From NCBI GenBank assembly GCA_964483665.1, contig CAZACP010000001.1:6358-70357 (forward strand): 64,000 bases of DNA. Direction: 5' to 3'. Below are positions 4,543-57,494 of this stretch, one piece after another. Source of the stretch: an uncultured Candidatus Saccharibacteria bacterium (GTDB taxonomy: Bacteria > Patescibacteriota > Doudnabacteria > UBA920). Position 1 is the stretch's first letter, and the number at the start of each line of letters is the position of its first letter. The notes under the pieces are model-generated. The model ran no database searches. It was not told the origin of the DNA and was given only the letters and a program-made list of their open reading frames with translations. Both the position numbers and the translations under genes were made by a program.

Positions 4543-4881
4543 TTATTCGCGTGGCCTGCGAGGCCGGTTAGGCGGTTGATAGCGGCGATCCTTGTATGGA
4601 TCGTCTTTATGCAGCCAGCCGTGAAAGCCTTCTAACCCGTAAATTGAAGGGGGACTGACGTCTTGAGGGTACGACGGGGTTGCGGTTTCGGAAGAACCGC
4701 CGAAGAGCTCAGTTGTCTCTTCTGCGCCGGTCATGAACGGAATTCCTTGGCTTGGGTCGGGTACGAACCCTAACCCTCCAGAAAAAGGCATATTGTGGCT
4801 TGTTCGAGTTGGCGGGTTTCCTAGACCCATAAACCCTTCCATAATTTCATCATGGTTTGCGATAGTTAAACAGTGTGCCAT
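4543..4881 (-). CDS. Orphan G+C-rich small protein (Pro/Gly/Ser-rich, basic C-terminal tail)
   Basis: Only long ORF in a visibly GC-rich patch; perfect SD ggaggaaagtgATG; no family recognised. Confidence 0.45.
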   Translation of the reverse strand: MAHCLTIANHDEIMEGFMGLGNPPTRTSHNMPFSGGLGFVPDPSQGIPFMTGAEETTELFGGSSETATPSYPQDVSPPSIYGLEGFHGWLHKDDPYKDRRYQPPNRPRRPRE

Positions 4882-5175
4882 CACTTTCCTCCTCTCCGGG
4901 GAAGTATAAAAAATTACAGAGAGAGAGTCAACTATTCACAGATACACAGATAATATGCAGATTGCACAGATAAGCATATTGTCATTCCGAGCGGAGCGAG
5001 GAATCGCTTCGCGATTGTTTATTAACAAGTTTTAGTATTACCGAAAGTTAAGGGATCCTTCGACTCCTCGACAATTTTAATCTAAAAATTGTCTCGTTGC
5101 TCAGGATTACAAAACATGTTGAGATTGGTTATATTTTTACCTATTTTATACCTTAATTTTTTGATTAGAAATAAC

Positions 5176-11459: not shown

Positions 11460-12698
11460 ATGAGACAATCAAAATATTTTTTAAAGACCAGCAAAACTAA
11501 GCCGGCCGAAGACACATCGGCAAATGCTATTTTGCTCGAGCAGGGCGGGTTTGTTTATAAAGAAATGGCAGGAGTTTACGCTTATTTGCCTTTGGGTTTT
11601 AGAGTTATAGAAAAAATAAAAAATATTATTAGAGAAGAGATGAACGCTATCGGTGGCCAAGAATTGATTATGACTAGCCTGCAGCGCAAGGAGGTTTGGG
11701 AAAAAACTAATCGTTGGGATGATAATAAAGTGGATGTGTGGTTTAAATCTAAACTAAAAAATGGCGCTGACGTAGGATTAGCATGGTCACATGAGGAGCC
11801 AATTACGACTATGATGCTAAATTATATAAGCAGCTATAGAGATTTACCCGCTTATGTTTATCAATTTCAGACGAAACTTAGAAACGAACTCAGGGCAAAA
11901 AGCGGAATTTTAAGAGGCCGAGAGTTTGTGATGAAAGATTTGTATTCATACAGCCTTAGTCCTGAGGCTCATGAAGAATTTTATCAAAAAGCAATTTCAG
12001 CATATTTAAAAATTTTTGAACGGGTTGGTTTGGGAGAATCGACATTTTTAACTTTCGCTTCGGGCGGAGCGTTTACACAGTTCAGCCACGAATTTCAGAC
12101 CGTGCTTGAAGCTGGTGAAGATGTTATTTATTTAGACCGTAAGAAAAAAATAGCGATTAACAAGGAAGTTTTAACCGAGGAAGTATTAAAACAGCTAAAT
12201 TTAAAACGTGAGGAATTAGAAGAAGTAAAAGCCTCAGAAACCGGCAATATTTTTAATTTTGGCACTACTAAATCTGAACAAATAGGTTTGTATTATAAAG
12301 ATCAACAAGGAAGCAGAAAGCCTGTCATTTTAGGTTCGTATGGTATTGGTATTACAAGAGTAATGGGAGTAATTGTAGAAAAATTCCACGACGAAAAAGG
12401 CATAATCTGGCCGGAGAGCGTGGCGCCGTTTAAGGTGCATCTAATTAGTTTAAAAGGTGCCGAGAACGAAGCAGAAAATATCTACCAAGCTTTATTAAAA
12501 GAAGGAATTGAGGTATTATTAGATGATCGGGAAGTAAGCGCGGGGGCTAAATTTGCCGACTCGGATTTAATTGGAATCCCGCATAGGGTGATAGTTTCAC
12601 CTAAGACCATTGAACAATCATCCGTAGAAATTAAAAAACGATCAGATATAGAATCTAAATTAGTTAAAACTAGGGAGTTAGTTAAATACCTACAATAA
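11460..12698 (+). CDS. proS: Prolyl-tRNA synthetase, compact form without the INS editing domain
   Basis: Class II motifs and an anticodon-binding C-terminus; only 412 aa. Confidence 0.8.
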   Translation: MRQSKYFLKTSKTKPAEDTSANAILLEQGGFVYKEMAGVYAYLPLGFRVIEKIKNIIREEMNAIGGQELIMTSLQRKEVWEKTNRWDDNKVDVWFKSKLKNGADVGLAWSHEEPITTMMLNYISSYRDLPAYVYQFQTKLRNELRAKSGILRGREFVMKDLYSYSLSPEAHEEFYQKAISAYLKIFERVGLGESTFLTFASGGAFTQFSHEFQTVLEAGEDVIYLDRKKKIAINKEVLTEEVLKQLNLKREELEEVKASETGNIFNFGTTKSEQIGLYYKDQQGSRKPVILGSYGIGITRVMGVIVEKFHDEKGIIWPESVAPFKVHLISLKGAENEAENIYQALLKEGIEVLLDDREVSAGAKFADSDLIGIPHRVIVSPKTIEQSSVEIKKRSDIESKLVKTRELVKYLQ

Positions 12699-12833
12699 AT
12701 CCGAAATTCGAATATCGAAATTCGAAACAATACAAAAATCTAAAATAAAAAATTCAAAAGTCAGTAAGGGTTTGGGAATTTTTAATTTAGGATTTTTTCG
12801 AATTTCGTATTTAGCATTTCGAATTTTTAATTT

Positions 12834-13886
12834 ATGTTTGAAGGCATTTATAAAAAATTTTCCAGCGACATTGGCATAGATCTTGGCACTGCCAATACTT
12901 TGGTCTATGTAAAAGGCAAGGGCATTGTTATAAACGAGCCCTCTGTTGTCGCAATTAACCAAAGAACAAAGCAGATTTTGGCTATTGGCGATGAGGCAAG
13001 AAGAATGGTCGGCAGAACGCCCCCGCACATTGTAGCGACCAGGCCTTTGGTAGATGGAGTGATTTCTGATTTTGAAGTGACGGAAGCTATGCTTAGGTAC
13101 TTTATAGACAAAGTTCATAACCAAACTTTTGCTTTTTTGCGCCGTCCGCGTGTGGTTATTGGCATACCTTCAGGAGTAACTGAAGTGGAAAAAAGGGCGG
13201 TTATTGACGCGGCGGTAAATGCCGGCGCAGCCCAGGCTTTTTTAATAGAGGAGCCTATGGCCGCAGCTGTAGGCTCAAGGCTGCCTATTTCCGAACCGAC
13301 CGGCAGCATGATAATTGACATAGGAGGCGGCACGGCTGAAATTGCGGTTATTTCGTTGGGCGGGATTGTAATTTCTAAAAGCATACGAGTGGCCGGAGAT
13401 GAAATGAACGACAATATTGTCCAGTACGCAAGAGAAAAATTTAATTTGCTTATTGGTCCTCGCACTGCCGAAGAAATAAAAATTAGAATAGGCAGCGCAT
13501 ATCCGCTTGAATCAGCCTTAACCTTGGAGGTTAGGGGCAGGGATTTAGTGACCGGGCTTCCGAGGGAAATTCTAATGAACGACAGCCAGGTTAGGGACGC
13601 GCTTTCCCACAGTTTGAAAATGATTGTTAACAATACGAAATCCGTTATTGAGGGCATTCCGCCTGAATTAATTTCGGACATAATGCATAGGGGTATTGTT
13701 TTGGCGGGCGGTGGAGCGCTTTTAAGAGGGCTTAATAAGTTAATGCATGAAGCAACCGATATGCCGGTAGTTATAGCCGAAGACCCCCTAACTTGCGTAG
13801 CTAGGGGAGCGGGCGTGGTGGTGGAAGATTTGGAAACGCTCAAAGATGTGCTTTTGCCTAATGAATTTGGGAACGTACCTAGGTAA
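12834..13886 (+). CDS. mreB: Rod-shape protein MreB (actin-like ATPase)
   Basis: IGIDLGTANTLVYV... and IDIGGGTAEIAV are hallmarks. Confidence 0.95.
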   Translation: MFEGIYKKFSSDIGIDLGTANTLVYVKGKGIVINEPSVVAINQRTKQILAIGDEARRMVGRTPPHIVATRPLVDGVISDFEVTEAMLRYFIDKVHNQTFAFLRRPRVVIGIPSGVTEVEKRAVIDAAVNAGAAQAFLIEEPMAAAVGSRLPISEPTGSMIIDIGGGTAEIAVISLGGIVISKSIRVAGDEMNDNIVQYAREKFNLLIGPRTAEEIKIRIGSAYPLESALTLEVRGRDLVTGLPREILMNDSQVRDALSHSLKMIVNNTKSVIEGIPPELISDIMHRGIVLAGGGALLRGLNKLMHEATDMPVVIAEDPLTCVARGAGVVVEDLETLKDVLLPNEFGNVPR

Positions 13887-14000
13887 AAATATTGACAAAA
13901 ACGACGTAAATGACAAAAATAAAAAATAAAATACAGATTTTTGGGTGGTATTTTAAATTTTTGTCATTTTTATTATTTTTGATCATTTTTCATTTCTTCA

Positions 14001-14798
14001 ATGCGGTTTATATACAATAAAACATTCGTAGCCTTTTTTGTTTGCCTGTGCCTGTTGGTATTTTTTATGTTTTTAAACAGTCAAGGGGCGCTAGACCAAA
14101 TAAAACGGTTTTTTTTAAGGCTTCCGCAACCGGTGGTTAATTTTTCAGGAAATTTAGGCAGGAATACGAAGTCTTTTTTTCTGGCGCTCTATGATTTAAA
14201 GGGAATGGTTAAAGAAAACGCCCAACTCAAAGAAAATATTGCCTTGCTAGAAATTGATCTGGCTGCGGCTGAGGCCGATATTAGAGAAAACGAAATTTTG
14301 CGGAAAGAATTGGGGTTTGTTAAGAGTTCCAAACTGGATTTAGAGCCTTGCGAGGTGCTGTCGGCTAACTCGTTAAACTTAACCGACACTTTAATTATTA
14401 ATTGTGGAACTGATCAGGGTCTTTTAGAAGGACAGGTAATAATTTCTCAGGGTCATATAGTCGGGAAAATAATTTACGTCGGGAAAACTACTTCCACTGC
14501 GCAAATTGCAACCTCTTCCAAATTCTTAACAGACGCTCGCATAAGCAAGACCGGCCAGCCTGCGGTTGTACAGGGGTCGTATAACTCAGGTATGGTAATT
14601 GACCAATTACCCCAGTCAACACAACTCGAGCCAGGCTGGTTAATAGTTTCCGGGGGTATTAATTCTAAAATCCCGGCTGATTTGCCTATTGGGGAAGTTG
14701 GTCAGATTATTTCTTCCCAAAATGATTTATTTAAAAAAGCCAGCCTGCTTTCTCCGGTAGATTTTAACGACTTAAGATTTGTGTATGCCGTAAAGTAG
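14001..14798 (+). CDS. mreC: Rod-shape protein MreC
   Basis: N-terminal TM plus coiled coil plus beta domain; position after mreB. Confidence 0.8.
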   Translation: MRFIYNKTFVAFFVCLCLLVFFMFLNSQGALDQIKRFFLRLPQPVVNFSGNLGRNTKSFFLALYDLKGMVKENAQLKENIALLEIDLAAAEADIRENEILRKELGFVKSSKLDLEPCEVLSANSLNLTDTLIINCGTDQGLLEGQVIISQGHIVGKIIYVGKTTSTAQIATSSKFLTDARISKTGQPAVVQGSYNSGMVIDQLPQSTQLEPGWLIVSGGINSKIPADLPIGEVGQIISSQNDLFKKASLLSPVDFNDLRFVYAVK

Positions 14799-20976: not shown

Positions 20977-21070
20977 CTACAGAAGGCTACAGAAAGAATT
21001 CACTACGGATACCTACAGAAAACTACAGAATCTATATATTCAAGTAATCATAATCTATTAATCATATTCT

Positions 21071-21271
21071 ATGAACGAAAAAGATCCACTGAGACTAATT
21101 GAACAAAGTGATGTTAACGTAATTATTGATATGAATAAAGCAATTGCGAATTTTTATAATCTCTCGGATGATGGTAAAGAACGTTATGTTGCAATGTTGT
21201 CAGAAGCCCAAAAGGATAATATTAGGCTAACTTTGCAAAACTGGATGCGATTGATTGAAAAAGAAAAATAA
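21071..21271 (+). CDS. Small hypothetical protein inserted between nusG and rplK
   Basis: 66 aa; flanked by ctacagaa words upstream and gaatttaggatttaata direct repeats downstream. Confidence 0.35.
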   Translation: MNEKDPLRLIEQSDVNVIIDMNKAIANFYNLSDDGKERYVAMLSEAQKDNIRLTLQNWMRLIEKEK

Positions 21272-21377
21272 TTTTATCCCTAATTCATACTTCGCGCTTC
21301 TCGAATTATGAATTTAGGATTTAATAATTAGAATTTGTTTCGGATTTCGATATTCGAATTTAGGATTTAATACGTTT

Positions 21378-23483: not shown

Positions 23484-23530
23484 CCGCAGATACGCAGATT
23501 AAAAACAGATCGCGTATATAAAAAATAAGA

Positions 23531-25285: not shown

Positions 25286-25370
25286 GCTACGAAAGTACTA
25301 AATGTACCAAAATACTAAAATTGTTTTCGTATTTCGTACTTTCGTAAATTTTCGTAATTTAGTAGCCCAT

Positions 25371-25808
25371 ATGAGAACAAAAATAACCAGGTTAGACAAA
25401 ACAGTAGAGCTTCCTAAATACCACACCAGTGAGTCCGCGGCTTTTGATTTAGCCGCGAATGAAGACGCGGTTATAAAACCAGGGGAAATTGGCAAAATAA
25501 AAACCGGGTTAATAATAGAAGCGCCCAAGGGACATTTTTTGCTTATAGCCGCCCGCAGCAGTTTGGGACTAAAAAAAGGTCTTAAGCTAGTTAACGGAAT
25601 AGGCGTGGTAGACAGAGACTACGCCGGACCCACAGACGAAATTCATATTTTAGTTCATAACTTTACCGCACTGCCGGTAGAAATTAAAAAAGGCGACAGG
25701 CTAGCCCAAGGCATGTTTGTAAAGGTTGATCAAATTGAATGGGAAGAAGTAGATAATATTCGCGAGCAGAGCAGGGGAGGGTACGGAAGCACGGGAGGTT
25801 ACAAATAA
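25371..25808 (+). CDS. dut: dUTP diphosphatase
   Basis: dUTPase motifs (SAAFDL, GLIIEAP, GVVDRDYAG, RGGYGSTG); the upstream part of the listed ORF is ttcgta word repeat. Confidence 0.85.
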   Translation: MRTKITRLDKTVELPKYHTSESAAFDLAANEDAVIKPGEIGKIKTGLIIEAPKGHFLLIAARSSLGLKKGLKLVNGIGVVDRDYAGPTDEIHILVHNFTALPVEIKKGDRLAQGMFVKVDQIEWEEVDNIREQSRGGYGSTGGYK

Positions 25809-26374: not shown

Positions 26375-27112
26375 ATGGCCATTTTGAGGTTTGGAAAAAC
26401 AAAAAAGAAAGAAGAACCGCAGCGCGGGCGTTTTATAGTTATAGACGGGACTGACGGCAGCGGCAAGGCAACTCAGACTAAAATGCTCATAGAAACTTTG
26501 CGCTTGGAAAATTATCCGGTGGAAATGGTGGACTTTCCCCAATACGGCACCAAGTCCGCAGGCATAATTGAAGAATATTTAAACGGCAAATACGGGCAAG
26601 TGAGTCCTCAGGCAGCCAGTATTTTTTACGCTATAGACAGGTTTGACGCCAGTTACAAAATTCGGGAGTGGCTTTTGCAAGGCAAGATTGTTATTGCTAA
26701 CCGTTATGTAACGGCCAATGCCGGACATCAGGGCGGAAAAATTGAAAGCGACTTTCAACGCCTAAAATTTTTTAAGTGGCTAAATAATTTAGAGTACGAG
26801 GTGTTTAATATCCCAAGGCCGGATTTAAACATAATTCTTCATGTGCCGGCGGAAATAGCTCAAACTTTGGTAGATAAAAAGTCCGTTAGCGACCGGGCTT
26901 ATGTGAACGGAAAAAAGCGCGACTTGCACGAGTCGGATATTGAGCATTTAAAAAACGCGGAAAAAGTCTATTTGGAAATAGCCAAGCTGTTTCCAAATAC
27001 AAAATTAATAGAGTGCGTGGAAGCCGGCAGGCTGCTTGAGCCGAACACTGTACACAACAAAGTTTGGCAACTGGTAAGACGCATAGGTTTAAAAGATTTT
27101 AAAGTAAAGTAG
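26375..27112 (+). CDS. tmk: Thymidylate kinase
   Basis: FIVIDGTDGSGKATQ P-loop; DRY-like motif; 245 aa. Confidence 0.9.
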   Translation: MAILRFGKTKKKEEPQRGRFIVIDGTDGSGKATQTKMLIETLRLENYPVEMVDFPQYGTKSAGIIEEYLNGKYGQVSPQAASIFYAIDRFDASYKIREWLLQGKIVIANRYVTANAGHQGGKIESDFQRLKFFKWLNNLEYEVFNIPRPDLNIILHVPAEIAQTLVDKKSVSDRAYVNGKKRDLHESDIEHLKNAEKVYLEIAKLFPNTKLIECVEAGRLLEPNTVHNKVWQLVRRIGLKDFKVK

Positions 27113-27119
27113 TTTATCT

Positions 27120-27160
27120 CACAGATACGCAGATACTTCAGAGCGCACAGATAAAACACC
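27120..27160. repeat. Left cacagata-type repeat block bracketing the GxxExxY ORF
   Basis: tctcacagatacgcagatac...cacagataaaac; its reverse complement (gtatctgagtatctgtg) lies at 27545..27585. Confidence 0.7.
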
Positions 27161-27169
27161 AGGAATTTT

Positions 27170-27544
27170 ATGGAAGATTTTTTATACAAAGATTTAACAG
27201 AAAAATTAATAAAAGCAATTTTTAATGTTTATAATGAATTAGGATATGGTTATCGGGAAAAAGAATATCAAAATGCTTACGCGGAGGAATTAAAAGATTT
27301 AGGGCTGCTTTTTTCAAGAGAGTTATATTCAAATCTAACATATAAGGGTAAAGTAATTAGAAGATATTTTTTGGACTTTTTGGTTGAAAATAAAGTAGTT
27401 GTTGAGCTTAAAGTTGCAAATGAAGTTTATCACCAGCATTTTACTCAAGTTTTACAGTATTTGAAAAATAATAATTTGCAATTAGGTCTAATTTTAGTTT
27501 TAACCCCAACGAAGGTTCTTATTAAGAGAGTAATAAATCAGTAA
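27170..27544 (+). CDS. GxxExxY family protein (PD-(D/E)XK-like, TIGR04256)
   Basis: ELGYGYREKEYQNA...LDFLVENKVVVELK matches the GxxExxY signature; inserted between tmk and thyA. Confidence 0.75.
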   Translation: MEDFLYKDLTEKLIKAIFNVYNELGYGYREKEYQNAYAEELKDLGLLFSRELYSNLTYKGKVIRRYFLDFLVENKVVVELKVANEVYHQHFTQVLQYLKNNNLQLGLILVLTPTKVLIKRVINQ

Positions 27545-27585
27545 ATCGCGTAATCCGCGTTATCTGAGTATCTGTGAAAGAAACA
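27545..27585. repeat. Right inverted copy of the cacagata words
   Basis: cgcgtaatccgcgttatctgagtatctgtg. Confidence 0.7.
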
Positions 27586-27592
27586 TAAATAT

Positions 27593-28405
27593 ATGCAAGC
27601 ATATTTAGATTTATTAAAAAAAATAAAAGATGAAGGCGTAGAAAAGCATGACCGCACGGGCACCGGAACTAAAAGCATATTTGGCTACCAAATGCGTTTT
27701 GATTTAAGCAAAGGTTTTCCTTTACTAACTACCAAAAAGGTTCATTTAAAGTCCGTAATTTACGAGCTGCTTTGGTTTTTAAAAGGCGATACCAACGTAA
27801 AATGGCTTAATGAGCATGGAGTTACTATTTGGGATGAATGGGCTGACGAAAACGGGGACTTAGGACCCGTTTACGGCAAGCAGTGGCGAGCTTGGAGGGG
27901 TTATAACGGAGAAACTTTTGACCAGATTGCTTATGTTGTAGACCAAATTAAAAATAATCCCGACAATCGCCGTATGATTGTTAGCGGGTGGAACGTGGCA
28001 GATTTGCAATCGCTCATAGCCGGTAAAAAAACCGCGCCTCCGCCGTGCCATACTTTGTTTCAATTTTACGTGGCTAACAACAAGCTTTCTTGCCAGCTGT
28101 ATCAACGCTCAGCCGATGTGTTTTTGGGCGTGCCGTTTAATATAGCGTCTTACAGCCTTTTAACAATGATGATGGCGCAGGTAACAGACAAAGATTTAGG
28201 AGAATTTGTCCATACTTTTGGCGACGCGCATATTTATAACAATCATATGGAGCAGGTGAATTTGCAACTTAGCCGCACTCCCAAAGCCTTGCCGACCATG
28301 AAGTTAAATCCGGAAGTTAAAAGCATTTTTGATTTTAAATATGAAGATTTTACTTTGGAAAATTACAATCCCGATCCGGGCATAAAAGCGCCAATAGCTA
28401 TTTAG
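27593..28405 (+). CDS. thyA: Thymidylate synthase (ThyA type)
   Basis: Active-site PPCH plus [10 protein letters not shown] and the classic ThyA blocks. Confidence 0.95.
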
Positions 28406-28476
28406 TAAGTAGTTAGTAGTAGGTAGTAAGTAGCAAGCAAAGTTAAGAATATTGAAGTATTAACAAATTAATTAAC

Positions 28477-30527: not shown

Positions 30528-30575
30528 AAGAGATAACACAGATGTTCAAAATAGAAGTTATCTCTTTTTATTTTA
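30527..30575 (+). terminator. Rho-independent terminator after prfB
   Basis: aagagataac...gttatctctt stem followed by a T-run. Confidence 0.75.
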
Positions 30576-30676
30576 ATAAAAATTTGATATAATTAATTTA
30601 TTGAACTCGCATACAGAAATAAATTAATTTCGAAAAAGTATCTGTGGTATCTGTGCGCTGAAAAGATCTGTGATCT

Positions 30677-31354
30677 ATGATTAAATTCCAAAAAGTAACA
30701 AAAAATTATAAAAATTCCAAAGCTTTGGACGGCGTGGATTTAGACATACATCACGGAGAGTTTATTTCTTTGGTGGGCAGGAGCGGAGCTGGGAAATCTA
30801 CTTTGTTAAAACTAATAATTGGCGAGGAAGAAATAGACGGCGGGAGGATTTTAATTGACGACATTGACATCTCCCAAGTTCGAAAGTCTGACCTGCCTTT
30901 CTTAAGAAGAAAGATTGGCGTGGTGTTTCAGGACATGAGGCTTTTGCCCAGGCGGACGGCTTTTGAAAATATTGCTTTTGCAATGGAAGTCTGTGGGCAC
31001 CGGTATGAAAATATTGTTAAGGAAGTTCCCAAAATTTTAGAGCTGGTCGGCCTTCACCATAAGCGCAATAATTTTCCGGACGAAATGTCGGGCGGCGAAA
31101 AGCAGCGCGTGGCTATTGCGCGCGCGCTTTCACACCGGCCTGTGCTGCTTTTGGCCGATGAGCCGACGGGAAATTTAGACGAAGTTAACGCGGCAGAGGT
31201 TTTAGATTTGCTTTTAAAAATCAACAACCTTGGGACAACTGTAATTTTAGCGACCCACGCGGCGGATTTGGTAAACAAAATTAAAAAGCGCGTAATAACC
31301 ATAGAAAACGGAAAAATTACCATTGAGCAGGAGAAGGGAAAATATAAGTTATAA
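30677..31354 (+). CDS. ftsE: Cell-division ABC ATPase FtsE
   Basis: Walker A GRSGAGKST, signature LSGGEKQR, Walker B LLLADEPT. Confidence 0.95.
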   Translation: MIKFQKVTKNYKNSKALDGVDLDIHHGEFISLVGRSGAGKSTLLKLIIGEEEIDGGRILIDDIDISQVRKSDLPFLRRKIGVVFQDMRLLPRRTAFENIAFAMEVCGHRYENIVKEVPKILELVGLHHKRNNFPDEMSGGEKQRVAIARALSHRPVLLLADEPTGNLDEVNAAEVLDLLLKINNLGTTVILATHAADLVNKIKKRVITIENGKITIEQEKGKYKL

Positions 31355-32374: not shown

Positions 32375-32685
32375 CTACAGAACTACAGGTCTGTATATTA
32401 CAGAAAACAACAGAAGTTGATAAATATCGGTTTCTAAAATTCTGTAGTTTTCCGTAGATTCGTATATTTGGTAACTTTTGCAGGATTTTTATCCACAAAT
32501 TTGCATTTTTTTTCTACATAAGTATAATAAGAAAGAGCCCTAAAATAGCAGTAAGCATAAAGGGCTAAATGGCTCTCGCGAAAGCGGGATTTTTTTATTA
32601 AGAAAACTGATGGCACGGATCGAGAAACGGATGGACACAGAAGTCCGTGTCCCTCTGTAATTGTCAGTGTAATCGGTTTTATTTT

Positions 32686-33132: not shown

Positions 33133-33135
33133 TAG

Positions 33136-33587
33136 AGCCTTCTCCCGGCGGGGAGAAGGTGCCCGAAGGGCGGATGAGGGTGTTATATGCGCAACATAAA
33201 CAAAAGCTTTGTTAATCTTTCTAGGAATTTAAGAAAAAACGAAACACCTTGGGAAATAAAGTTATGGCAAAGGTTAAGGGGAAGGAAATTTTTAGGATTT
33301 AAATTTAAAAAACAATTGGTTATAGGTAATTATATTTACGACTTTGGCTGCTTTGAAAAGAGACTATTAATTGAACTAGATGGCGGACAATATAGTGAAA
33401 ATGATATTAAAGATAAAGATCAAATTAAGGAAGATTTTGCAAAAAACCAGGGCTATAAAATTATCAGGTTTTGGAATAATGAACTAGACAACAATTTTGA
33501 AGGAGTTTTGGAGACAATTAGAAAAAACTTATTATAACCCTCATCCGGCCGTTGGCCACCTTCTCCCCTAAAGGGAGAAGGCAAACT
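33136..33587. mobile_element. Composite miniature element: DUF559 ORF bracketed by inverted copies of the ccctcatccg/ccttctccc hairpin MITE
   Basis: Left copy 33136..33183 (reverse orientation), right copy 33537..33587; the arms are conserved and the small hairpins differ but remain stems. Confidence 0.7.
33187..33537 (+). CDS. DUF559 (Vsr-like endonuclease-fold) domain protein
   Basis: WEIKLWQRLRGRKFLGFKFKKQ...IELDGGQY matches the DUF559 pattern. Confidence 0.7.
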   Translation: MRNINKSFVNLSRNLRKNETPWEIKLWQRLRGRKFLGFKFKKQLVIGNYIYDFGCFEKRLLIELDGGQYSENDIKDKDQIKEDFAKNQGYKIIRFWNNELDNNFEGVLETIRKNLL

Positions 33588-33608
33588 AACATCCGTTTTG
33601 CTAAAATT

Positions 33609-51401: not shown

Positions 51402-51887
51402 ATGATTTTGCCAATAAAAAAACACCCGGATCCAGTGCTTAGGGCTAAAACAGAGCCAGTGGTTTTTCCTTTGTCTCCACAAATAGAGAAATTAACCAAA
51501 GATATGTTTGACACAGTAAAGGCCGCAGACGGTATCGGGCTTGCCGCGCCGCAGGTCGGCAAGAGTGTAAAATTAATTGTCATAAACTTGGAAAAATCCG
51601 GCGTTCCTTTGTTCGCGCTTTACAACCCGCGCATTAAGTCAAAAGGATTTAGAAAAGTGGAAATAGAAGAAGGCTGTCTTTCTTTGCCGGGAATTTACGG
51701 TATGGTTAAGCGGCCAAAAAAAGTTATTATAGAAGCCCAAAACCACAAGGGAGAAAAAATTCTAATTCGCGACGACGGCTGGGTTTCCAGGGTTGCCCAG
51801 CATGAAATAGACCACATAAACGGAATTTTAATAATAGACCTTATAAAGAAATACACAAAGGGAGAAAATTTACTAAATACGAATTAA
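51402..51887 (+). CDS. def: Peptide deformylase
   Basis: GIGLAAPQVG, EGCLSLPG and HEIDHING motifs; the upstream tacttactac words are intergenic. Confidence 0.9.
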   Translation: MILPIKKHPDPVLRAKTEPVVFPLSPQIEKLTKDMFDTVKAADGIGLAAPQVGKSVKLIVINLEKSGVPLFALYNPRIKSKGFRKVEIEEGCLSLPGIYGMVKRPKKVIIEAQNHKGEKILIRDDGWVSRVAQHEIDHINGILIIDLIKKYTKGENLLNTN

Positions 51888-51950
51888 TACGAATATACTA
51901 ATTTTGTTCCCATTCGTATATTAGTAAGTATTAGTATTTTGGTAAAAAAT

Positions 51951-53587: not shown

Positions 53588-53729
53588 CACTCACTCCTTT
53601 ATTTCGGACTAAAGAAAAATATCAGAGAGAGTTTTGTCAATAATCTACGGAATATGTATACTGCACTACAGATGTCTATAGAGTTTTTGTAGGTATCTGT
53701 AGATTCGTATAATTTGTAGTTTTGTAGAT

Positions 53730-55717: not shown

Positions 55718-55883
55718 CTTTAAAATCTGGTTTTTATACCAGTTGATTATACCATATTACTTTCGCAGATACACAGATGAAGAAAATAGCACAGATTAGT
55801 ACCTATTACTGCTGCTCAAGAATTGTAGCCCCCTATTTATAAAGACATACGTGTAATCTGTGTTAAATTTGTGTATCTGCGAT

Positions 55884-56576
55884 CTACATTTTTTTAGTTA
55901 AGCCGTTTTCAACCTCATCGAGAATCTTTTTAGCGTGTTCTTTGCCGCCAAGACCAAAGGCAATGCCGCCGGCAATGGCTATCATGGCTACAATAGCTCT
56001 AAATAAGTCTATTAAGAAGTCCGTGGCAATTTGGAGTTGGGAAAGCGAAGCAATAAGCGCAAAAATTACAATTGCCCATTTGGTAATGCTGGCCAGCGCA
56101 GAAGCTGAAGCGTTAAGCCCGCTGGCTTTAACCGAAGATCCGACAATTCCTGAGAAAAAGTTTGCAGCTAAAATTCCCAAAAGCAAAATTGCCATGGCTA
56201 TTATGACCTGGCCGCCGTAAGCGAGCACGCTGTCGTAAAAGAAGCGACTTACTTCATTAAGTCCTAAAATTTCAGCGGTTGCAATAAAGCTGCCTAAGAA
56301 AAAGAACCACTTTATTATCCAGGCGCCTAAAGCGGAAAGGCTGAGTTTTTTTCCAACCTTCTCACCTAAAGAAGCAAGTCCTAGCGAATTGGCAAGCTGG
56401 TCTATTTTTATCGCGTTTAAGATTTTTTCAACAAAGTTAGAAAGCAGGCTGCCCAAAAGCCAGCCGAAAATTATTACAATAATCGCCGCAAGTAAATTTG
56501 GTAAAAACCAAAGTACTCTCTCGTAGAGGTCGCCAAGCGATGTTAATACAGTTGATTGATATGTCATTAGATTCAC
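55884..56576 (-). CDS. Polytopic membrane protein with conserved TM-helix repeats (MscS-N-terminal-like)
   Basis: Repeated Ala/Gly/Ile-rich helices. Confidence 0.5.
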   Translation of the reverse strand: MNLMTYQSTVLTSLGDLYERVLWFLPNLLAAIIVIIFGWLLGSLLSNFVEKILNAIKIDQLANSLGLASLGEKVGKKLSLSALGAWIIKWFFFLGSFIATAEILGLNEVSRFFYDSVLAYGGQVIIAMAILLLGILAANFFSGIVGSSVKASGLNASASALASITKWAIVIFALIASLSQLQIATDFLIDLFRAIVAMIAIAGGIAFGLGGKEHAKKILDEVENGLTKKM

Positions 56577-56775
56577 AGATACACGGATAACACAGATAAC
56601 ACAGATTTTGTGTTAGTGAGATCCGTGAGATTAATTTATTATTTATTATTATCTTTGTTTCGTTAAGGTTTCCGGTATCGACCTTAACCGGGTTGTTTAA
56701 TTTTAGATTTTTGATTACAGATTTTAGATTGTGTTAGAATCTAAAATCCAAAATTTTTAATTTGCGATTATAATT

Positions 56776-57216
56776 TTATTCGCCCACAATTTTTACCCAC
56801 GCTTCCCTGCTTCTACCGCCGTCCAGTTCTACAAAAAAGACGCTTTGTTTAGGACCTAAGAAAAGTTCGCCACGCTGAACTATGACACTTTCCGAGGCAC
56901 CTAAGAAAAAGGCTTTTACATGGGCATGGCCGTTGCTTCGTTCGTTGGGCGCAATATTTTGCCTAACCTCGAATAAGTCGTGGCTGTAGCTGGCATCAAG
57001 CGGAAATAGTTTGTATAAAGTTTTCATAAAGTCCTGCATAAGCAGCGGCTCGTTATGATTTATTTTTATAGTTGCCGTTGTATGGGGGCTAAAAATAGTA
57101 ATTAAGCCTTCCTTTATGCCGCTTTCAACAACCGCAGTTCTAATGTGCGTGGTTATGTCGAGCATCTCGAATTGTTTTTTGGTTTCTAAAAGCAGTTTTT
57201 TTTGATAGATTTTCAT
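56776..57216 (-). CDS. yjbQ: YjbQ/UPF0047 family protein (secondary thiamine-phosphate synthase)
   Basis: HTTATIKINHNEP...GHAHVKAFFLG. Confidence 0.8.
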   Translation of the reverse strand: MKIYQKKLLLETKKQFEMLDITTHIRTAVVESGIKEGLITIFSPHTTATIKINHNEPLLMQDFMKTLYKLFPLDASYSHDLFEVRQNIAPNERSNGHAHVKAFFLGASESVIVQRGELFLGPKQSVFFVELDGGRSREAWVKIVGE

Positions 57217-57454: not shown

Positions 57455-57494
57455 GTTTCTGTGGTATCGGTAAATTTCCGTGGATATCTGTGAA

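Follow-up and report, generated by a model that had tools for sequence, protein, structure and literature searches.

Several mobile elements have ends with several transposase-binding sites, as in Tn7 (TnsB sites, with the PD-(D/E)XK subunit TnsA), Mu and the plant hAT and CACTA elements (subterminal repeats). Another arrangement is that of REPIN-RAYT (doublets of repetitive extragenic palindromic sequences, REPs, with REP-associated tyrosine transposases), in which a short single-copy gene has cognate flanking repeats, inverted doublets without an open reading frame (ORF) are dispersed, and the type of repeat is lineage-specific (PMC3337134). The protein family PDDEXK_3 (PF13366) is widespread and listed as of unknown function (PMC3424549), and full-text literature searches, with most subscription journals outside their coverage, returned no paper on the biology of GxxExxY proteins or on an architecture of flanking words. 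Here we describe a 473-bp element at positions 27112-27584 of a 64-kb stretch of DNA (39% G+C; hereafter the window) from Candidatus Doudnabacteria, of the candidate phyla radiation, which consists of one GxxExxY / PDDEXK_3 gene and two arms of short repeated words and lies in the gap between tmk and thyA. We think it somewhat probable that the unit inserted in this operon junction is a self-recognising nuclease element, whose words would be the duplex recognition sites of its own protein.

An inserted unit between tmk and thyA

The element is part of a co-directional run, dcd-dut-dnmk-tmk-[ORF]-thyA-folA, in which tmk (thymidylate kinase, 26375-27112, plus strand) precedes and thyA (thymidylate synthase, 27593-28405, plus strand) follows the ORF. 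The left arm (27112-27169, plus strand) begins at the final base of the tmk stop codon and carries the words CACAGAT (27120-27126), CGCAGAT (27128-27134) and CACAGAT (27146-27152), as well as an AGGA ribosome-binding site about 8 nt 5' of the ATG of the ORF. The ORF itself (27170-27544, plus strand) encodes 124 aa. The right arm (27545-27584, given on the plus strand, with its words antisense) ends 8 nt 5' of the thyA ATG and carries ATCCGCG (27553-27559, the complement of CGCGGAT), ATCTGAG (27562-27568, the complement of a degenerate CTCAGAT) and ATCTGTG (27570-27576, the complement of CACAGAT). The initial annotation had described perfect inverted blocks around the ORF. An exact inverted pair is indeed present, with CACAGATA on the plus strand at 27120 and 27146 and its exact reverse complement TATCTGTG at 27569-27576; the best full repeat (27112-27135 / 27561-27584) is imperfect, with 24 nt at 88% (21/24). 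The inner parts of the blocks are non-complementary yet word-like (on the left CGCAGAT and CACAGAT; on the right CTCAGAT and CGCGGAT, both as their complements). CACAGATA was found 11 times in the window against 0.58 expected, a count reached in 0/100 shuffles, and the inverted-repeat score from flank to flank was 33, compared to a mean of 13.8 and a maximum of 17 for the shuffles. We observed no promoter of the element's own, the nearest promoter-like site on the plus strand being upstream of dcd, and no terminator-like site inside it; the element is transcribed together with the dcd-to-folA operon. A search of the whole 64 kb with Rfam at gathering thresholds gave no match at all, whether to tRNA, rRNA or riboswitch models.

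The ORF product matches TIGR04256 (GxxExxY) over model positions 1-116 of 116 (99.6 bits, cut-off 35, E 1e-28) and PF13366 (98.5 bits, cut-off 22, E 4e-28). Nine residues are invariant in 41 homologues (G25, G27, E30, D69, E79, K81, Q93, Y97 and R120), and the D-ExK catalytic motif (D69, E79, K81) is intact. An AlphaFold2 model (predicted local distance difference test score, pLDDT, 95) has a PD-(D/E)XK fold with the order helix-helix-strand-strand-strand-helix-strand-strand. The best structural matches to this model, Cas4 SSO0001, lambda exonuclease, a tRNA-splicing endonuclease and the Hjc resolvase, amount to a generic PD-(D/E)XK core; no solved structure of a homologue was detectable by sequence. 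No transposase of a known class (DDE, HUH, serine or tyrosine recombinase) was found in the element, of which the PDDEXK_3 gene is the sole ORF, and the defence-system and phage libraries gave marginal matches only. The ORF is under purifying selection. Between the window and its counterpart in locus L091 (logan:SRR7661008; loci are designated by L numbers), the proportion of differing synonymous sites (pS) was 0.78 for the ORF, which is saturated, and that of differing nonsynonymous sites (pN) was 0.059, compared to a pN of 0.20 for thyA in the same pair; the selection is thus stronger than on thyA across the same divergence. The conserved motif and the model both indicate a GxxExxY protein that is functional.

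We then compared the tmk|thyA junction among relatives. At least 24 public contigs encode exactly the window protein. Ten of its locations were read, and in these thyA lies immediately downstream, tmk lies upstream wherever the contig reaches, and the flanks are identical, so these contexts represent one species. A scan with Tmk, at one genome per species, gave about 40 Doudnabacteria loci, and the closest relatives of the window were labelled Candidatus Doudnabacteria. In nine related species the junction is empty: the thyA ATG follows the tmk stop after 1-11 word-free nt. One of these species is L011, which a Tmk+ThyA tree places as the sister lineage of the window (Tmk 89%, ThyA 94%). The ORF and its arms are therefore an insertion, as the initial annotation had proposed in treating the ORF and its word blocks as one unit and in calling for a presence/absence comparison at this junction. 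Intact, truncated and relic copies were observed in other species. L177, from another clade than the window, has an intact GxxExxY element; L032 has an N-terminally truncated copy with both arms kept; and L015 has the last 9 codons and a right arm, the latter identical to that of L177. The other occupants are a left-arm remnant with a DUF559 ORF (L016), DUF559 ORFs (L018 and L024), a 242-nt ORF-less inverted repeat (L017) and a tetratricopeptide-repeat ORF (L019). These occupants make tmk|thyA a hot spot, at which decay by internal deletion is directly visible. No additional GxxExxY copy beyond the known ones was found in about 600 kb of the relatives' loci fetched with Tmk.

The copy of L091 lies at the same junction and is 89% identical to that of the window in the GxxExxY protein, compared to 72% for ThyA and 50% for FolA. 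At the nucleotide level the ORFs are 80% identical and the flanks next to the insertion 73% and 68%. The contrast between the GxxExxY protein and the host proteins points either to exceptionally strong constraint or to a transfer into this site long ago. A recent transfer between L091 and the window was considered and set aside, since synonymous sites are saturated and cannot resolve the timing; the contrast in nonsynonymous divergence (dN 0.06 for the ORF, 0.23 for thyA) alone remains. The stop codon of the L091 copy is lost and its frame runs on through the right arm (extension HTALSAASAYLRKKQ), and many database homologues of 129-139 aa show the same read-through, as an artefact or as variation.

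Word arms in homologues and their co-variation with the protein

Arms of the same kind flank homologues at unrelated places. A homologue 77% identical to the window protein lies between two RNase_T genes (L092), and another, 67% identical, between PrgI and TraC-like genes (L093). A metagenome scan with a family alignment gave 78 loci at 41-63% identity, of which 69 were usable. In 66/69 of these, the inverted-repeat score of the two 100-nt flanks exceeded that of all 30 shuffles (median 34 versus 15); the neighbouring genes of the same loci scored at background (median 16), and their few high scorers were other small ORFs, e.g., four-helix-bundle genes. Across about 70 homologues the arm consists of 3-4 tandem words of 7 nt with the skeleton Y-R-C-N-R-A-W, sense in the left arm and antisense in the right one. 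Per 100 nt, we counted 4.25 sense words in left flanks and 4.12 antisense words in right flanks, compared to 0.3-0.7 in the wrong orientation and 0.45 in ORF interiors. The spacing of the words is mostly 8-10 nt, a second mode being 13-14 nt, and falls in classes, (14, 9/10), (8, 10, 9) and (12, 12, 10), that are mirrored between the arms.

The position within operons is equally regular. The ORF is co-oriented with the upstream gene in 44/47 loci and with the downstream gene in 41/43, a median of about 6 nt separates the upstream stop from the first word and about 9 nt the last word from the downstream ATG, and the element measures a median of 455 nt from word to word. In many elements the innermost left word stands 5-15 nt 5' of the ATG. 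The "TDNTD" N-terminal and "SAASV"-type C-terminal extensions of database homologues are arms translated by gene callers. One of the loci, L172, is the same as L103 and not independent. At L104, L113, L127/L128, L101/L103 and L138, the element is directly followed by more of the same words, as a second left arm or as an ORF-less doublet; the high direct-repeat scores between the flanks at these loci are those of tandem or nested elements.

The words differ between elements (CACAGAT, CACTAAT, CACGAAA, TACGAAT, CGCGGAT and others) and agree within one element. At the variable word positions the match was 0.86 between the two arms of one element versus 0.57 between elements, and different words inside the same arm matched at 0.85. 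The spacers between words matched at 0.48 versus a background of 0.40. Arm alignments (median 40 nt, 80% Watson-Crick) contained 74 G-U-type versus 95 A-C-type mismatches, with no excess of G-U, and the fold of the whole window element as RNA gave z = -0.07, no better than shuffled sequence. Taken together, the matching of words within and between arms, the non-complementary spacers, the mismatch counts and the fold score indicate that the conserved unit is the word and not a continuous helix. An RNA stem as the selected feature was accordingly rejected, being unsupported by the mismatch counts, the spacer complementarity or the z-score.

We compared the consensus word of each element with every column of the protein alignment, with residues in the numbering of the window protein. 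Residue 22 is the N of VYNELGYGY, and the window protein carries Thr10 and Asn22, with G at position 5 and T at position 7 of its words. Residue 22 predicts word position 7 perfectly: T occurred together with Asn22 in 53/53 elements and A with Lys or Arg22 in 15/15. The mutual information between position 7 and residue 22 equalled the entropy of the trait, which is the maximum possible, and the next-best column reached less than half of it. On a neighbour-joining tree built on the 124-aa protein with the relevant columns masked, each of the two characters changed 7 times by parsimony, always together. Word position 5 was associated with residue 10, with Thr in 28/34 G-type elements and Ser in 31/33 A-type elements; this association is more confounded by phylogeny than that between position 7 and residue 22. 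Word positions 1-2 showed only diffuse associations with protein columns, which follow the phylogeny.

The same associations were observed word by word with position 7 unrestricted: Asn22 with T in 168/189 left and 163/175 right words, and Lys22 with A in 38/41 left and 39/43 right words. Thr10 occurred with G in 91/95 left and 84/88 right words. Two loci fetched later, L179 and L187 (Thr10/Asn22), have TACGGAT and CGCAGAT words and keep the rule, and L177, which has Gln22, has CACGGAC / CGCGGAC words, with C at position 7. In three cultivated bacteria of other phyla, all with Thr10/Asn22, the words end in GAT. On pTS1 of Treponema saccharophilum a single inverted ACACGGATTCG / CGAATCCGTGT flanks the GxxExxY gene; the other two cases are a Fusobacteria plasmid and Gemmatirosa kalamazoonensis. 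Since the rule is kept in both arms, in opposite orientation, the simplest reading would be that the encoded protein reads the words on double-stranded DNA. To judge from these alignments, the nuclease appears to recognise its flanking words.

ORF-less doublets, relics and other cargo

The window contains one intact copy of the GxxExxY element and 14 clusters of at least three skeleton words, compared to 2.3 expected. Relic arms of the resident word type (CACAGAT / CGCAGAT) were found at five other spacers. Between an MscS-like gene and yceG, both on the minus strand, lies an ORF-less mini-element of this type (55761-55880) that reads CGCAGATA, CACAGATG, CACAGATT, about 45 nt, ATCTGTG and TATCTGCG. 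A probable relic occupies the gap between prfB and an ftsE-like gene (30533-30676, plus strand), with one ACACAGAT word in a hairpin after the prfB stop and a right-arm array, TATCTGTG-G-TATCTGTG...ATCTGTG, that ends 2 nt before the ATG at 30679. A solo left-arm relic (23484-23515, plus strand; CCGCAGATA, CGCAGATT and AACAGAT) directly follows the stop codon of a response regulator, and a solo arm of four CACAGATA-type words (4937-4975, a right-arm array read on the minus strand) stands just upstream of a TTGACT-17-TATACT promoter-like site and of the gene at 4543-4884 on the minus strand. Finally, a pair of CACAGATA-type arms 850 nt apart (57457-57492 and 56574-56606, minus strand) lies between the stop of an HU gene and the start of the MscS-like gene, and brackets a terminator-like hairpin, a YjbQ gene (56776-57216) and further word blocks (ctacagaa, tttagatt); here it seems that other cargo has taken the place of the GxxExxY gene or that the relic was invaded.

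Doublets of other word types are present as well. In the dcd|dut gap, an ORF-less mini-element (25286-25367) has TACGAAA / TACTAAA words followed by their inverted copies, and leads the ORF list to start dut at 25302, the likely true ATG being at 25371. In relatives, the dcd|dut gap holds a doublet of CGCGGATA type (L070), a short word-free spacer (L012) or a small membrane-protein-like ORF (L011). Further ORF-less doublets with other words lie at 51871-51944 and 32376-32482. Outside Doudnabacteria, a doublet of three CGCGGAT and three ATCCGCG adjoins the GxxExxY gene of Gemmatirosa kalamazoonensis and has 15 more matches on the two megaplasmids of this bacterium, which makes 16; at the one such site that was read (L196), no GxxExxY ORF was found within about 700 nt.

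We also noted cargo-free inverted word blocks in intergenic regions at 12690-12840, 13880-14005 and 53685-53726, beside those at 32376-32482 and 51871-51944 (cgaaattcg, tgacaaaaa, ctacagaa and tactaat / tacgaat types). Several of these fit Y-R-C-N-R-A-W, and their word types would need GxxExxY proteins unlike the resident one. At 20978-21375, a five-word array of left type (CTACAGAA / CTACGGAT) right after nusG is followed by an unrelated array of right type (ttcggatttcgatattcgaat). This region looks like a composite of two element types; by eye it has an apparent frame of 66 codons at about 21072-21270, and the one frame translated was not open. Beside the solo arm at 4937-4975, the region 4975-5100 holds other hairpin-forming sequences (gtcattccgagcggagcgaggaatc; gggatccttcgactcctcgacaa...ttgtctcgttgctcagg), and L014 and L017 have similar gggatcc...gggatgaca motifs in their tmk|thyA spacers. 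Directly 3' of thyA, at 28398-28440, is a run of agtaagtag-type tandem words (tagtaagtagttagtagtaggtagtaagtagcaag) with no obvious inverted partner.

Two other classes of small ORF in the window have arms of their own. The ORF between gatA and gatB (2387-2752) belongs to the four-helix-bundle / 23S_rRNA_IVP family (TIGR02436), and its arms (2340-2386 and 2753-2778) are inverted tandem A/T-rich words (aattttaaa...). Four-helix-bundle homologues at L093, L168, L074 and L124 likewise have element-specific words (atcaaag, acaggcaac, attgttaaa). The ORF after rplI (33187-33537) is a DUF559 gene whose G+C-rich arms (33133-33186 / 33538-33590) contain a local hairpin each (ccttctccc...gggagaagg) and an inverted gatgagggt / accctcatc; similar arms, ccctcc / ggaggg, flank the DUF559 ORFs that L016 and L018 carry at tmk|thyA. 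In the three cargo classes the architecture is common and the words are not.

These results bear on several claims of the initial annotation, whose observation is partly confirmed and whose interpretation is partly supported. Its assignment of the ORFs at 2387-2752, 27170-27544 and 33187-33537 to the four-helix-bundle, GxxExxY and DUF559 classes holds, and ORF-less miniature versions are present both in the window and elsewhere. It had called for a search for other GxxExxY copies with the same terminal words: the ORF with inverted words recurs at unrelated junctions in about 70 homologues, with word sequences that are specific to each element. Spacer words common to the three cargo classes, which it had assumed, were not found, as GxxExxY elements have Y-R-C-N-R-A-W, four-helix-bundle ORFs their own words and DUF559 ORFs G+C-rich hairpins. 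Nor did we observe the active population that it suggested: each exact protein that was looked up occurs in a single context, and the closest copies are saturated at synonymous sites, with the protein strongly conserved. It had taken words at spacers without cargo as an argument against itself. Such words do occur, and they do not decide the matter cleanly, since the deletion derivatives L032 and L015, compared to the intact L177 at the orthologous junction, indicate that cargo-free word blocks can be relics of elements.

Mechanism, rival explanations and known systems

In the mechanism that we propose, the words would be recognition sites of the element's own protein on double-stranded DNA and not just the halves of a paired stem. 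Residue 22 would read word position 7 (Asn-T, Lys/Arg-A, Gln-C), and residue 10 would track word position 5 (Thr-G, Ser-A). Several protomers might bind the word arrays at both ends, and the nuclease might then act at or near the arrays. The copy that bears the ORF and the ORF-less doublets scattered in intergenic spacers would thereby be maintained or moved; REPINs stand in the same relation to their RAYT transposase, an enzyme of another superfamily.

Several points weigh against this mechanism. We infer the DNA binding, the cleavage at the words and the mechanism of mobility, and we know of no transposase that is a PD-(D/E)XK nuclease alone. Comparison of filled with empty tmk|thyA sites revealed no recognisable target-site duplication, the junctions being diverged and the termini not sharply defined. 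No identical copies were found at two loci (the proteins P0001, P0023 and P0057 each occur in one context), and there is thus no sign of recent bursts. The distant homologue L174, with Arg22, has no word arms and gives no information on position 7. As the tree was built on a short protein, the independent co-switches of residue 22 and position 7 may be nearer 4-5 than 7. Residues 10 and 22 are 12 apart on one helix and the bases that they track are 2 bp apart, a mismatch of distances by which a simple contact model with a single protomer may be wrong. The arms of the window element close its predicted minimum-free-energy and centroid RNA structures. In addition, the arms of four-helix-bundle ORFs share the architecture of GxxExxY elements with an unrelated, non-nuclease cargo, so part of this architecture may not depend on the cargo.

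Some of these points lend themselves to other explanations. It is unlikely that the nuclease instead serves the host, in defence or repair, or belongs to an addiction module, with the words as operator or titration sites for self-regulation and the patchiness produced by ordinary gain and loss through recombination. Such a function would suit a purifying selection that exceeds that on thyA over the same divergence, the occurrence of each protein at one stable locus across many samples, and the place of the innermost left word, which in many elements is 5-15 nt 5' of the ATG, so that a protein bound there could influence expression; the co-variation of protein and words fits it as well as it fits mobility. 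A host function does not explain why arrays stand 3' of the gene in the right arm, why ORF-less doublets are dispersed over many junctions, why different lineages have different word types at the same junction or why the stop/start gaps of essential operons are used repeatedly and precisely, and the match to any known defence-system model was only very weak. We regard as still less probable an element that acts at the RNA level like a 23S rRNA intervening sequence, the arms pairing in the transcript and looping out the ORF. RNase III or another enzyme would then process the stem, or the stem would join the upstream stop and the downstream start; the insertion would be harmless and the words would be building blocks of the stem. 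Beside the predicted structures closed by the arms, the operon orientation, the lack of an internal promoter or terminator, the abutment of the arms on the adjacent stop and start codons and the analogous arms of four-helix-bundle ORFs, which are the family of rRNA intervening sequences, would agree with this, and in Coxiella RNase III cuts the intervening sequence out at a stem (PMC4990558). However, the spacers between the words are non-complementary (0.48 versus 0.40), the words are as alike within one arm as across arms, which a stem does not require, G-U-type mismatches are not in excess (74 versus 95 of A-C type), the whole element folds at z = -0.07, and a stem leaves the tracking of bases by residues in both arms unexplained.

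A classical free-standing homing endonuclease gene, which would cut the empty tmk|thyA junction of naive genomes and be copied in by repair, with the words incidental, is a poor candidate in our view. The junction is occupied in two host clades, the L091 ORF is 89% identical to that of the window against 72% for ThyA and 50% for FolA, and small PD-(D/E)XK homing endonucleases such as I-Ssp6803I are known; however, close relatives of the ORF lie at quite different junctions, the protein co-varies with flanking words of its own that are absent from empty sites, and the flanks (73% and 68% nucleotide identity, versus 80% for the ORF) bear no sign of co-conversion. That the arms are a chance resemblance among low-complexity spacers, with the ORF an ordinary gene, seems hardly conceivable: many spacers of the window do contain tandem short words of several kinds, but the shuffles, the neighbouring-gene controls, the strict orientation of the words, about 70 independent loci, the cases in other phyla and the empty orthologous sites all contradict it.

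The self-recognising nuclease element might be extended to a general proposal, which we put forward tentatively and with some doubt. There would be an as yet undescribed class of prokaryotic elements, mobile or self-maintaining, with no enzyme besides GxxExxY proteins. These proteins would have about 120 aa and a simple code of residue to base (residue 22: Asn-T, Lys/Arg-A, Gln/His-C; residue 10: Thr-G, Ser-A), and would assemble on inverted arrays to excise or copy their own gene and the doublets into the stop/start gaps of operons, a logic that could extend to four-helix-bundle and DUF559 ORFs with their own types of arm. From the comparison of about 70 relatives, a protein family of unknown function looks to be at the core of a self-recognising genetic element not described before. 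TIGR04256 / PF13366 would gain a concrete role, as a putative sequence-specific nuclease with sites flanking its own gene and with named candidate residues for specificity. If true, the REPIN-RAYT arrangement would have arisen twice, independently and from different enzyme folds, and the model would explain many odd tandem-word spacers and small "hypothetical" ORFs in essential operons of genomes of the candidate phyla radiation. For annotation, arms translated as false N- or C-terminal extensions ("TDNTD", "SAASV", and the over-extended dut at 25302) are errors to be recognised, and engineering could perhaps use as a scaffold a DNA-reading nuclease this small, whose code can be read in part.

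The element has two features by which transposable elements are recognised, inverted repeats at its ends that travel with it and presence/absence polymorphism at orthologous sites. In Tn7, Mu, hAT and CACTA, as in this element if its words do bind the protein, several direct repeats of a binding word stand near each end, and the two ends carry them in opposite orientation; in Tn7 the PD-(D/E)XK nuclease TnsA can join in the cleavage of the ends. The element differs from them in having no DDE or other strand-transfer enzyme and no target-site duplication that we could see, in its size of about 0.45 kb, and in that its transposition would have to be deduced. The Correia elements of Neisseria, miniature inverted-repeat transposable elements, are likewise intergenic (about 100 bp) with inverted ends and are co-transcribed with their neighbours; here there is in addition a gene for a candidate cognate protein that co-varies with the repeats, and the ends consist of tandem words and not of a single terminal inverted repeat. 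Homing endonuclease genes (phage T4 seg/mob, I-Ssp6803I) are also small nuclease ORFs between conserved essential genes and patchy among relatives, but they recognise an empty target and have neither inverted word arrays nor ORF-less doublets.

The intervening sequences of 23S rRNA (PMC4990558) resemble the element in having a small ORF between inverted repeats within an essential, highly expressed transcription unit, in the decay of the ORF and the existence of ORF-less versions, and through the four-helix-bundle family, present in the window with analogous arms. They are located in helix 25 or 45 of the rRNA, whereas the GxxExxY element lies in an intercistronic gap of an mRNA operon, has a nuclease as cargo and arms that are arrays of words without stem covariation, and does not need excision by RNase III.

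The closest system in its logic is REPIN-RAYT (PMC3116915, PMC3337134, PMC5581495). In both, a gene has cognate flanking repeats and ORF-less inverted doublets are dispersed, as seen here in the window and in Gemmatirosa; the type of repeat goes with the lineage of the protein, and the gene is usually single-copy, stable in its locus and under purifying selection. The differences concern first the protein, which is a PD-(D/E)XK protein of about 124 aa here and an HUH/Y1 (IS200-like) transposase in RAYT. REPs are palindromes recognised as single-stranded hairpins, whereas in the arms described here the spacers between the 3-4 tandem words of 7 bp are non-complementary, an arrangement that suggests a readout on duplex DNA. 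Moreover, it is here the ORF-bearing unit that is polymorphic for presence and absence, inside operon junctions. Overall, the GxxExxY element is an analogue of REPIN-RAYT and not a member of it.

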